A DNA stretch of 64,000 bases from Eledone cirrhosa (taxonomy: Eukaryota): NCBI GenBank assembly GCA_964016885.1, contig OZ024748.1:19840001-19904000 (forward strand). Direction: 5' to 3'. Positions within the stretch are counted from its first letter, which is position 1; every line of letters begins with the position of its first letter. This document shows positions 4,129 through 45,105 of the stretch, piece by piece. A program made the position numbers and the translations under genes. The notes under the pieces were generated by a model that did not search any database, was not told where the DNA came from, and saw only the letters and a program-made list of their open reading frames with translations.

Positions 4129-4321
4129 AACGAAGGAAATGTGGTAAGGAACCAGGTGGACCATAACGCACCAAAGTACTCAATTCTTAGGGTAGTAGAG
4201 TGGGTAATAGGAACGAGTAGGACCCCGACGGCTGAGCTCAAGTCGTTTCGACGGCTAATTCTGGACTCGAATTAGCCGTCGAAAAAGCTTGAGCTCAGCC
4301 GTCGGGGTCCTACTCGTTCCT
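4129..4321. repeat. Family B fold-back element carrying the 3' half of a hammerhead
   Basis: Arms ~4208-4262 / 4270-4321; GAAAC-GGCT-TGAGCTC-AGCC-GTC-GGGGTCC type stem III; ~80 bp one-sided extension; (TA)n flanks. Confidence 0.75.
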
Positions 4322-4392
4322 ATATATATATATATATATATATATATATCAAAATGAAAATCCGAAGGCAAGGTAAAATTCCAATCATTTAA

Positions 4393-4466
4393 TCACGACA
4401 CATGTTTCAATAAGAGATAGATCGATTGTGAAGCCATGATCGATTATCACTGATCTCATCAGGTGA
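4393..4466 (-). ncRNA. Type I hammerhead ribozyme, family H
   Basis: UCAC-CUGAUGA-long imperfect stem II-GAAA-CAUGUG-UC-GUGA; GUC triplet, palindromic ACAUGU. Confidence 0.8.
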
Positions 4467-4919
4467 AAATGAATTGTCTTCAAATTCTTGATATATATAT
4501 ATATATATATATATATATATATATATATATATATATATACTGTAGATTTATGAATATATATATATATATATATATATATATATATATATATATATATGTG
4601 CGTGTGTGTCTATGTATATATATATATACATATATCTATATCTATATCTATCTATCTATCTCTCTCTCTATATATATATATATATGTGTGTGTGAGTGTG
4701 TGTATGTATATATATATATATATATATATATATATATATATATACTGTATATAGGTGGAAAAGCGAAGTTGATCTCAGCGGGATTTGAACTCAGCTCAGA
4801 ATACAGAGAGCAGGAACGAGTAATGCAAAGCTGTCTATCCGACTTTTTAATGACTCATTTATGTATAGTTAATATACAATAGTTTCACTGATCACGTCAG
4901 TTATTTCAGTCCTTGCCTG

Positions 4920-5490
4920 ACGACTCCAAATAGAAGCTTACATGCACACACATACCATACGCAGGCCCATGCATAGCAACATTTATACACACACACTTCA
5001 TACATACATACACATATATATATATATATACATATATATAAAACATAAATATATACATACTCAGTGGTTGTCTGAGGACGCCAAATAGAAGTATATATGC
5101 ACACACATACATACGCACGCCCATGCATAGCAACATTTATACACACACACTTCATACATACATATACATATATATATATATACATACACACATATATATA
5201 TATACATATATATAAAACATACACATATACATACTCAGTGGTTGCCTGACCACGCCAAATAGAAGTATATATGCACACACATACCATACGCAAGCCGCCC
5301 ATGCATAGCAACATTTATACACACACACTTCATACATACATACATACACACATATAAATATACATATATATATAAAACATACACATATACATACTCAGTG
5401 GTTGCCTGAGGGCGCCAAATAGAAGTATATATGCACACACATACCATACGCACGCCCATGCATAGCAACATTTATACACTCACACTTCAT
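4920..5490. repeat. Minisatellite, ~4 units of ~140-180 bp with embedded microsatellite
   Basis: Repeated CCAAATAGAAG...CCCATGCATAGCAACATTTATACAC and ACTCAGTGGTTG. Confidence 0.85.
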
Positions 5491-5519
5491 ACATACACAT
5501 ATATATATATATATATATA

Positions 5520-41123: not shown

Positions 41124-41526
41124 TGCAAAAGTTCTATTTAAAATTGTTGGGATACAAAAAGTAAATATTTTTATAACTGGTATAAAGCACTCGACAAATT
41201 TTTGGAGTAGATATACGATATTAATAAATGGAAACTATATTTATAAAACCATATTTATTTCATTATGCATATTTCAGGGATACCACATTAAATTATGGTA
41301 TGCCTTCATCAGACAAAATACAATATATAACAGTTTTACAAATAGGTTTGACGTAACCTTTAAAATGGTTGTATTTTAAAGGGTACGTCAAACCTATTTG
41401 TAAAACTGTTATATATTGTATTTTGTCTGATGAAGGCATACCATAATTTAATGTGGAATCCCTGAAATATGTATAATGAAATAAATATGGTTTTATAAAT
41501 ATAGTTTCCATTTATTAATATCGTAT
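41124..41526. repeat. Family A fold-back, HHRs at 41256-41320 (-) and 41419-41483 (+)
   Basis: Arms ~150 bp, centre ~41369; left arm ~90 bp longer. Confidence 0.9.
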
Positions 41527-41654
41527 ATATATATATATATATATATATATATATATACACACCTCAATTCATATACATATTTATGCAATATCTATTGATA
41601 TTTCCTAATTTCAGACACGTTGCAATCTAGCATAGACAAGGCGCTTGAGAGAGC

Positions 41655-42630
41655 CTACACACAGAGACTGACAAATGCATACATATATACATATATATAT
41701 ACATATATACATACATATATACATACATATATATATATATATATATACATACACACATACATATATACATACATAGATATATACATATACACATACATAT
41801 ATATATATATAAATATATATATATATATATATATATATATACATACACAGATACACATAAACATACATATTTACATACATACATATATACATACATACAT
41901 ACATACATATATACATATATGCATGCGTACATATATACATACATATATATACATACATATATATATTTTTATGCATATATACATACATGCATACATGCAT
42001 ACATATATATATACATATATTCATATATATACATACACACATATGTACTTAAACACATTTACAAACAAACATACATACATACATCCATATATACATACAT
42101 ACGTATATACATACACATACACACACATACATATATACATATATGCAAACATACATCACACAAACATACAAACATACATACATACATGCATATAAATACC
42201 ATACATACGTATATATATATACACACGCACACACATACATACATATATACAAACATGCAAACATACATCACACAAACATACAAACATACATATATGCATA
42301 TATAACATACATACGTATATACATACACACGCACATACATACATACATATATACATACATACAAACATACATCACACAAACATACAAACATACATACATA
42401 CATGCATATATATACCATACATACGTATATATATACACACGCACACACATACATATATACATACATGCAAACATACATCACACAAACATACAAACATACA
42501 TACATACATGCATATATATACCATACATACGTATATATATACACACGCACATACATACATATATACATACATGCAAACATACATCACACAAACATGCATT
42601 CATACATACATACATGCATATATACACATA
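41655..42630. repeat. (TACA/CA) complex satellite with ~106 bp higher-order unit
   Basis: Repeated GCAAACATACATCACACAAACATACAAAC. Confidence 0.8.
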
Positions 42631-43487
42631 TATATATATATATATATATATATATATATATATATATATATATATATATATATGGTGGCTGCCAATTCGT
42701 TTTCGAGTACGGCCACTACTTTATATCCATGTAGGAGAACTCCTACCGATGCGCTGAACGAGTGTGACATTTTAGTCCAGCCAGCGACTTGAAAACTCTG
42801 GTACAAACACTACACTTGTGACAATTATTGTCACATAGTGCTGGGCCCATGGCACCATGTGACGACAAGTGCAGAGAGATCTCCAGATATAAAGCAATGT
42901 CTGTGCCGTGAAGCTTTTATAGAGAGCAAAGGCTCTGCACAAAGCCAGTCCCACTCTCTTAACCAAGATGATATTTACCAAAAAGAAGAACAAGTGAACA
43001 TCATTTGATACCATCAGGGTTGCAGGTGTTATATCAGAGTTTTCCTTCCCCTAGGATTCTGCCTTGACAAAGGCTAAGGGGTCATCTCTCCTGGTGATTT
43101 TGGATGGCCATTGACTCTTAAGAGCTCCTTTGCACTTTGACAGGTTTTGTTTTTAGTCCTGCAGGATGTCCAAAGTCACCCTCCTCACCAAGAAACCTTG
43201 GTGGGGTTGCCAGTTTAGTCGCCAACGACCCGACCATGAGACAGGTTGTACTGGGATACATGTTACCAGTAGCACCAACTGGTGACCTCATATACATACA
43301 TACATACATACATACATACATACATACATACATACATACATACATACATACATACATACATACATACATACATACATATATATACATATATATTCTTTGC
43401 CAGCGAACGTTTCCACGAACCAGAGTATCGTCTTCCTGTCTTCCTCCGGTTGCAAGGTTTTTTGAAATATCCAGTTCTGCGTTTACA

Positions 43488-44068
43488 GATTGACTTTGTT
43501 AGTTTCAGAAGATCCCGTTAAGGGTGAAAGCAGCGATTCTTTGCTTAAACTTTAATCTGTTATTTTAATAAATATTCATATATATATATACGATATTAAA
43601 TAAATGGAAACTATATTTATAAAACCATATTTATTTCATTATATATATTTCAGGGATATCATATTAACAATATGCTATGCCTTCCTCAGACAAAATACAA
43701 TATAGACAGTTTTATAGATAAATAGATTTGACATACCGTTCAACATCGACTTGTATTTGAAAAGTTGATTTGGCAGATTTGCCAAATCAACTTTTCAAAT
43801 ACAAGTCGATGTTGAACGGTATGTCAAATCTATTTATCTATAAAACTGTCTATATTGTATTTTGTCTGAGGAAGGCATAGCATATTGTTAATATGATATC
43901 CCTGAAATATATATAATGAAATAAATATGGTTTTATAAATATAGTTTCCATTTATTTAATATCGTATATATATATATGAATATTTATTAAAATAACAGAT
44001 TAAAGTTTAAGCAAAGAATCGCTGCTTTCACCCTTAACGGGATCTTCTGAAACTAACAAAGTCAATCT
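43488..44068. repeat. Composite palindrome: family C HHR + (TA)n + family A HHR in each arm
   Basis: HHRs 43501-43551 (+), 43632-43697 (-), 43858-43923 (+), 44004-44054 (-); centre TTGGCAGATTTGCCAA. Confidence 0.9.
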
Positions 44069-45105
44069 TGTATAACATACATATATATATATATATATTA
44101 TATATATATTATATATATATATATATATACATTTATATATATATATATATATATATATATATATATATATACATCTATATATATATATATATATATATAT
44201 ATAAATGTATATATATATATATATATATATATATATAAATGTATATATATATATATATATAATATATATATATAATATATATATATATATATATATATAT
44301 ATATATATATATATATATATATATATATATATATATATATATGTATGTTATACAAACACTTTATAGACATATAGACATATATACAAAAGTTCTATTTAAA
44401 TTATTGGGATACAACAAGCAAATGTTTTTATAACTGATATAAAGCACTCGACAAGTATTTGGAGTAGATATACGATATTAACAAATGGAAACTATATTTA
44501 TAAAACCATATTTATTTCATTATACATATTTCAAGGATACCAAGATAAATTATGGTATGCCTTCATCAGACAAAATACAATATATACCAGTTTATGAAGG
44601 TACACCATAATTTATCTTGGTATCCTTGAAATATGTATAATGAAATAAATATGGTTTTATAAATATAGTTTCCATTTGTTAATATCGTATATCTACTCCA
44701 AATACTTGTCGAGTGCTTTATATCAGTTATAAAAATATTTGCTTGTTGTATCCCAACAATTTAAATAGAACTTTTGTATATATGTCTATATGTCTATATG
44801 TCTATAAAGTGTTTGTATAACATACATATATATATATATATATATATATATATATATATTATATATATATATTATATATATATATATATATATACATTTA
44901 TATATATATATATATATATATATATATATATATATATATATATATATATATATACATTTATATATATATATATATATATATATATATATATATATAAATG
45001 TATATATATATATATATATAATATATATATAATATATATATAATATATATATATATATATATGTATGTTATACAAACACTTTATAGACATATAGACATAT
45101 ATACA
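44069..45105. repeat. Family A fold-back with mirrored microsatellite flanks; HHR 44513-44577 (-)
   Basis: 44340-44560 vs 44595-44830 inverted; right arm starts inside the core (ATGAAGG). Confidence 0.85.

Follow-up and report, generated by a model that had tools for sequence, protein, structure and literature searches.

Penelope-like elements with an endonuclease (EN+ PLEs) are known to leave complex insertions. For Pen2a_Av, the part of PMC3846280 available to us describes inverted pseudo-long terminal repeats (pLTRs), a tail that is optional on one of them and palindromes at head-to-head junctions, and it proposes self-priming on an antisense template. The available part of PMC8557442 reports the same layout, with a tail of 30-40 bp often at one end only, a bias towards (TA)n and the same structures in Naiads, which lack canonical hammerhead ribozymes (HHRs), and it calls the origin of tandem and inverted PLE structures undefined. 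With PAc, a Poseidon element of Anolis studied in vitro (PMC11167929), both strands were cut and extended, reverse transcription started at two internal sites bounding the tail, uncut RNA was the substrate and a dimer was predicted; the later integration steps were left open. The accessible part of PMC4209133 describes helix III as palindromic, reports activity as dimers and notes that minimal HHRs occur in pairs, on opposite strands and 100-700 bp apart. Here we analysed a stretch of 64,000 nucleotides of Eledone cirrhosa (assembly GCA_964016885.1, contig OZ024748.1, positions 19,840,001 to 19,904,000), hereafter the window, for fold-backs composed of two inverted arms between (TA)n arrays. 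They are very probably PLE insertions that end at two fixed start sites.

The window, from an assembly of 3.0 Gb, is animal DNA that is AT-rich and full of (TA)n. A sequence-only reading of it had listed twelve fold-backs and a longer element, PLE-1, as inverted arms of which one stops short. A site-by-site check combined with self-comparison bore this out: all 13 sites consist of inverted arms with one outer end flush and the other extended, by 39-117 bp, and the short-end words quoted for families A, B and M were correct. The short arm had been said to stop 80-115 bp early, which is right for most sites although two extensions are below 80 bp. It had also been said that (TA)n flanks the arms directly, which is right except at 23725, 25405 and 20328, where a (TAAAA)n or (CT)n run separates arm and array. 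The weakest site is that at 20328, with a 56-bp alignment at 86% and an extension read from other copies. The sites fall into families A (133, 21390, 26005 and 41124), B (4129, 8109 and 8385), C (9566), D (20328), E (23725 and 40090) and M (25405 and 35881), so that they count as about six families rather than as 13 independent tests.

The arms end at two family-fixed outer sites, here called S (short) and L (long), and one S is paired with one L almost without exception. This was observed in a sample of 1.04 Mb, made up of 88 10-kb stretches taken at round coordinates, 10 neighbouring stretches and the window, and in additional loci from sequence searches with families A and E; family B was counted within the sampled stretches only, since DNA searches of the genome with it gave no match, probably because words that occur very often are skipped. 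The pairing count covered 88 tail-out pairs of families A, B and E, with the window, the tail-selected family-A set and duplicate loci left out. Long+short pairs numbered 79 (33 in A, 34 in B and 12 in E), long+long none and short+short two, and seven pairs were unclassified. Against an expectation of 50%, 79 of the 81 classified pairs were long+short (p=2.7e-21), and in family B 34 of all 37 pairs were of this kind. Among 38 further family-E loci, 19 were long+short, two combined a long end with another end and 17 had no partner detected within 2.5 kb; at least three of these carry a very short, tail-only partner. At L217:1175-1195, a family-E partner arm stops at another TATA word within the tail and not at the usual long site.

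A TA run of at least 3 nt was present at 73% of 94 short ends and at 31% of control positions, a difference that alignment ends may inflate. TA microhomology, which the sequence-only reading had invoked, does not by itself account for the ends: longer TA words of family A at -114, -198 and +31 are hardly used, with 5 of 89 arm ends lying away from the two sites, so that more than microhomology sets the end position. The same reading had put one primer at the RNA's 3' end. This failed for family A, since at loci L052 and L060 the sequence runs past L into the 5' leader and open reading frame (ORF), which makes L an internal TA-like word and not a natural RNA end.

Scanned without regard to family, and with short internal TA runs not used as boundaries, the 802 stretches that lie between (TA)n arrays in the 1.04 Mb gave 102 (TA)n-bounded fold-backs, 94 asymmetric and 8 symmetric. 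They form 34 sequence clusters, 17 with at least two members, and tail length is family-specific, from about 27 to 170 bp across clusters. Outside the window, 89 fold-backs were counted in 980 kb, or about 90 per Mb. With a loose motif, 52 hammerhead cores read outward and 2 inward (one of the latter in a mis-centred unit), in agreement with the earlier claim that 3' ends point outward where an HHR gives polarity. An outward core was absent from 69 of the 102 fold-backs, in part through truncation or a strict motif. Neighbouring family-A arms less than 400 bp apart were tail-out in 63 cases, tail-in in 5 and direct in 2, a count that includes the window and tail-selected loci. Randomly placed short ends and an equal share of tail-in pairs, either of which had been named as fatal to the idea, were not what we found.

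Compared with EN+ PLE complex insertions, as far as the available parts of PMC3846280 and PMC8557442 describe them, the fold-backs are alike in head-to-head inverted pLTRs, one-sided tail, junction palindromes, an HHR in the pLTR, partial tandems and (TA)n targets. The architecture is therefore known, the inverted pLTR, the one-sided tail and (TA)n targeting having been published there. They differ in that tail length here is family-specific over the wider range given above and not 30-40 bp, in that ORF-less stubs dominate at the density given above, and in that the tail follows a one-long, one-short rule whereas it was described as merely optional. A strict rule of this kind was not found stated in the literature searched, in which subscription papers are thinly covered; titles and abstracts on Penelope with twin priming and inversion held nothing on point, and the accessible part of an octopus repeat-annotation paper has no passage on such palindromes. 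We regard the quantified pairing rule, together with a class of long arms that stall at S (see below), as a modest, testable addition.

Family A supplies the connection to a parent element. Locus L052 holds a whole family-A unit in the order (TA)n, inverted S-ended arm, pLTR remnant with tail, 5' leader, ORF for reverse transcriptase and endonuclease (RT-EN), 1.5-kb 3' untranslated region (UTR), HHR, S, L and (TA)n. The frameshifted ORF encodes an RT with YRDD, then a cysteine-rich linker recognised by eye and an endonuclease-like C-terminal region. Its closest neighbours in the Atlas are clusters with RVT_1, HTH_animal and GIY-YIG (score 0.95); Pfam returned nothing informative for two pieces of this ORF, and a PDB search gave no match. 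A single ORF with RT followed by a C-terminal GIY-YIG endonuclease places family A among EN+ PLEs, and pLTRs arising from a partial tandem and an inverted 5'-truncated copy are seen in L052, L060 and PLE-1. The family-A pLTR carries a type I minimal hammerhead predicted from its core motifs (stems were checked by script in other families), and the one-sided tail of 87-90 bp is continuous with the 5' leader. Judged by these sequence features, family A is the 3' end, an HHR-bearing pseudo-LTR, of a PLE with RT and C-terminal endonuclease, and the family-A fold-backs of the window are 5'-truncated 3' ends of an L052-type element. The Penelope-like origin and the family-fixed end points put forward by the sequence-only reading are supported. 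The cysteine-rich linker suggests that L052 is Neptune/Nematis-like; by motifs, it shares with those PLEs (available part of PMC8557442) a C-terminal endonuclease after such a linker and a microsatellite bias, but one cysteine was seen by eye in its GIY-to-YIG-like span, where the CCHH motif calls for two.

Outward-reading hammerhead cores are present in families A, D, E, F and M. In D, E, F and M the outward pLTR-type HHR, the tail and the (TA)n target were all seen, and no PLE ORF was traced for any of the four; family E extends at least 330 bp upstream. No core was seen in families B and C, and their outward polarity is presumed by analogy. Family B has its 5' end at a single position, about 57 nt before S. 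A ribozyme cut, as in A and E, was considered for this point and left unproven, since no B hammerhead was found: pattern searches for a hammerhead or parent of B gave 0, 5 and 0 matches, the five being hammerheads of other families or chance. At L160:8636-8954 and at L207-L211 the family-B 5' end is joined directly to pieces of other families, which suggests template switching among PLE-type RNAs. The word GAGT[AG]C occurs in tails of A (8/8), B (18/21), D (2/2), E (4/4) and G (7/8) and is absent from most other clusters, so that some of the families first called unrelated may be distant kin. By eye, it lies in a short ACTC..GAGT stem-loop just past the short site (for example at 41125-41211 and 4129-4207 of the window), a candidate protein-binding or positioning signal. 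Single-strand folding of HHR and tail pieces was no better than shuffles in 5 of 7 cases. Rfam gave nothing at the gathering score in the window, and between 39.8 and 45 kb sub-threshold hairpin and microRNA (miRNA) matches only.

The reading that we favour, at a probability of a little over one half (0.52), is that a fold-back is one insertion of two 5'-truncated 3'-end copies joined head to head, in which both ends of a (TA)n cut primed at two preset internal positions of one RNA. That a (TA)n break primes from both of its sides, as the sequence-only reading had proposed, is supported as the most likely course; whether a single RNA served both ends we consider evenly balanced. Among 33 directly joined long arms of family B, 28 extend as far as the fixed 5' end and the other 5 end between -3 and +23 from S, with none between -41 and -4; families A and E also have long arms that end near or beyond S. 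Long arms that stop at S are better explained by one shared RNA. In 29 pairs, eight rare variants were common to both arms (shuffled mean 0.48, maximum 4 over 2000 shuffles), and an arm of an older subfamily usually has its closest relative in its partner. Inner ends were mapped on L052 for 47 family-A pairs, with L052 itself, pairs that carry inserts or whose inner ends did not map, unpaired arms and duplicate loci left out. None of the 94 inner ends lay between -59 and -10, the interval surrounding the HHR cut predicted near -50, which argues for uncut RNA as template.

The model that we infer to be the best is thus twin priming in which a single RNA is the template and strand displacement takes place. 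A dimeric RT-EN particle would cut both strands and position a primer at each of S and L, where 2-6 nt of TA pairing would help priming; the stretch between the two sites would be the tail. The S copy would have a head start. An L copy that stalls at S would leave non-overlapping arms, as in L1 twin priming, and an L copy that displaces the first copy and reads that RNA again would leave overlapping arms and a palindrome. The two cDNA ends would then be joined via short microhomology or filler bases, and the hammerhead would be carried along uncut, probably dispensable for the geometry. Among 22 junctions resolvable at 40 loci, 10 had an overlap of 2-4 nt, 6 had filler and 6 were blunt or overlapped by 1 nt, the chance of an overlap of at least 2 nt being 16%. 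In L1 twin priming, which Ostertag and Kazazian reportedly described in 2001, two DNA ends are said to prime on one RNA, with the inversion joined by microhomology. That system resembles the non-overlapping class here, whereas its second site is variable and its segments do not overlap; here the site is fixed and most arms overlap.

The PAc system (PMC11167929) agrees with our model in its two internal RT starts bounding the tail, AT-rich targets, cutting and extension of both strands and uncut RNA template. However, the start sites of PAc are within the ORF and have no homology to the target, whereas those of family A lie upstream of the ATG with 2-6 nt of TA microhomology, and the available part of that paper does not report that the two sites were coupled within a single event. 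As a tentative generalisation, PLE integration may be an obligatorily asymmetric double priming, with one RNA, two fixed starts flanking a conserved tail stem-loop, one start per cut strand, and a trailing RT that stalls or displaces.

Several points weigh against the one-RNA reading. Both searches from which the 47 pairs were drawn bias arm length. The arm extents of these pairs correlate (Spearman 0.51), as snap-back also predicts, and inner ends pile up at hairpins and palindromic words, with 30 of 94 at -200 to -160 in family A and those of E and B each near one point, about -218 in E and -57 in B. In the 29 pairs, 38 rare variants were on one arm only, and those that are shared are just as well explained by snap-back, by two RNAs of a single locus or by gene conversion. 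The strand displacement needed for overlapping arms is assumed, and in the accessible part of PMC11167929 no start-site difference between the two strands was seen, so no coupling was seen in vitro. Among the Illumina raw reads examined there was no locus-bridging read and no empty target site, and target-site duplications of variable length would be hidden in (TA)n. Parent elements of B, D and M were not found.

The two-template form of twin priming preferred by the sequence-only reading, in which a dimer carries two RNAs and the two DNA ends copy one RNA each, one from S and one from L, now appears unlikely, although it survives best among the alternatives. Overlapping arms would need no displacement, tandem transcripts would supply a pair of pLTRs in cis (an S arm is joined to the upstream pLTR in L052), and the PAc dimer is predicted (PMC11167929). 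It would also suit the inner ends: the S arm reaches further upstream in 25 of the 47 pairs and the L arm in 13, the remaining 9 being within 10 nt, so that 25 pairs are non-nested. The 79:0:2 pairing, however, is left unexplained unless the dimer is asymmetric, and the rare variants shared by partner arms, the closeness of partners in older subfamilies and the long arms that stall at S all favour a common template.

Those 25 non-nested pairs are also what a snap-back has most difficulty with. If one cDNA folded and copied itself, they would require later deletions at the centre, in some cases of kilobases (PLE-1, L052 and L068), and for this the simple snap-back that had been named as an alternative was set aside. 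Long palindromes are prone to centre deletions, the 9 symmetric pairs fit directly, and correlated arm lengths, centres clustered at hairpins and variants common to both arms are all as self-priming predicts. Yet deletions would not halt preferentially at S, copying should often reach L and the attached (TA)n whereas long+long pairs number 0 of 81, and in PAc reverse transcription truly starts at S (PMC11167929). We therefore hold this explanation less likely again than two templates.

That the units are self-contained, that is, palindromic masters or relatives of miniature inverted-repeat transposable elements (MITEs) copied with their asymmetry inherited, is very improbable and already largely refuted by the variable centres. 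Family-B arms all start at one 5' point and family-E centres cluster, but centre sequences differ between copies in both families, so B and E fold-backs were joined anew each time; inner ends of family A vary widely, and A and E arms run into long shared upstream sequence. The fold-backs do not qualify as MITEs or foldback DNA transposons, 94 of 102 being asymmetric with varying centres. Nor are they non-LTR retrozymes, which consist of direct tandem HHR units, the arms being inverted. With the non-LTR retrozymes and non-autonomous PLE derivatives of 10.64898/2026.07.22.740005, in its accessible part, they share short non-coding PLE-related units, often with a type I HHR, but those form direct tandem arrays and not inverted pairs formed anew at each insertion. 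At L187 (G000:C28:110000001-110010000) a retrozyme-like satellite was observed, in which units of about 422 bp are repeated in tandem and mostly contain a hammerhead core of family F; this core type also occurs at 35621 and 61161 of the window.

Just as improbable is the suggestion that hammerheads dimerise through palindromic stem III, organise two templates and so cause the geometry. Palindromic stem III is real and present in several families, and such HHRs are thought to work as dimers (available part of PMC4209133). But most fold-backs lack an outward core, family B without any core obeys the pairing rule, the Naiads form the same structures (PMC8557442, in the part available) and catalytic HHR mutants leave PAc insertion in vitro unaffected (PMC11167929).

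In Illumina raw reads of another study, 5,178 reads follow the long arm as far as the short site and there pass into (TA)n; at the fold centre of family E, strand switches occur in 3, 5 and 1 reads of three runs. An amplification or assembly artefact is the least credible account, for although palindromes are a recognised type of chimera and single loci are not bridged by long reads, end points are family-specific across chromosomes, the arms differ by about 2%, and these independent short reads show both short-end junction and fold centres, so that the architecture is not an assembly artefact at the family level. A recurrent arm-to-arm A/T difference at -66 was also considered as a sign of two templates and rejected, the search query having carried the rare allele.

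Table 1. Fold-backs and parts of PLE-1 in the window (positions in the window; extension, length by which the long end exceeds the short end, or tail)
Position	Strand	Family	Feature	Long end	Extension	Hammerhead cores
133..3153		A	PLE-1, related to full element L052		90 bp
133-371	minus	A	PLE-1, inverted long-ended pLTR arm
to 1585	plus	A	PLE-1, 5'-truncated RT (YRDD near 420) and GIY-YIG-like endonuclease remnants
2999-3153	plus	A	PLE-1, short-ended pLTR, preceded by 3' UTR
4129..4321		B	fold-back	left	80 bp
8110..8313		B	fold-back; inverted repeat copy 12023-12226	left	78 bp
8386..8582		B	second-subfamily fold-back; inverted repeat copy 11691-11888	right	85 bp
9565..9813		C	fold-back		39 bp	not seen
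20329..20500		D	fold-back, imperfect		about 62-65 bp	20369 (-)
21390..22131		A	fold-back	left	87 bp	21576 (-), 22032 (+)
23735..24248		E	fold-back	right	about 100-110 bp	23821 (-), 24051 (+)
25406..25619		M	fold-back	right	112 bp
26006..26305		A	fold-back	left	90 bp
33580..34781		F	fold-back, absent from the sequence-only list		71 bp	33909 (-), 34523 (+)
35881..36287		M	fold-back, palindromic stem III	left	117 bp	36146 (-)
40088..40616		E	fold-back	left	101 bp	40284 (-), 40521 (+)
41125..41524		A	fold-back	left	90 bp	41312 (-), 41427 (+)
43590..43964		A	exception, short+short, within larger palindrome 43487-44068 including flank DNA
44380..44782		A	exception, long+long, within larger palindrome 44343-44825 including flank DNA

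The two symmetric exceptions in Table 1 lie in palindromes that mirror the flank DNA too and are probably secondary rearrangements of fold-backs. The long arm of the last regular family-A fold-back contains the short site near 41211. The block 8110-8583 recurs inverted at 11691-12225, and the regions of about 8110-11083 and 11221-13538 form a large shuffled inverted duplication with several family-B fold-backs, its blocks being mostly 93-99% alike.

Other repeats were also observed in the window. Two PLE coding fragments lie on the minus strand, one at 15055-16400 similar to the PLE-1 C-terminus (35% over 93 aa) and one at 20040-20348, the only one of six window proteins with a Pfam GIY-YIG match. 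Decayed sequences that by eye resemble ORFs of non-LTR retrotransposons lie on the plus strand at 7234-7581, without a Pfam match, and at about 56000-57100. A 5.8-kb array of a 5-bp unit in 1,168 copies occupies 27704-33499. An abundant repeat resembling short interspersed nuclear elements (SINEs) was found at 3396-3640, 18896-19270, 20560-20750, 49990-50660, 55400-55590 and 58400-59300, and is also inserted in family-A 3' UTRs (L008 and L017).

By extrapolation from the sampled density, the genome offers roughly 2-3 x 10^5 natural insertion products. In annotation, such stubs can be mistaken for MITEs or for microRNA hairpins, as the sub-threshold miRNA matches illustrate. The one-long, one-short rule and the stall class reduce the question of origin to a clean assay with two marked RNAs. 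If asymmetric double priming is true, it would account for the tail, the inverted pLTR and the junction palindromes of PLEs in one step and would replace the published self-priming idea.

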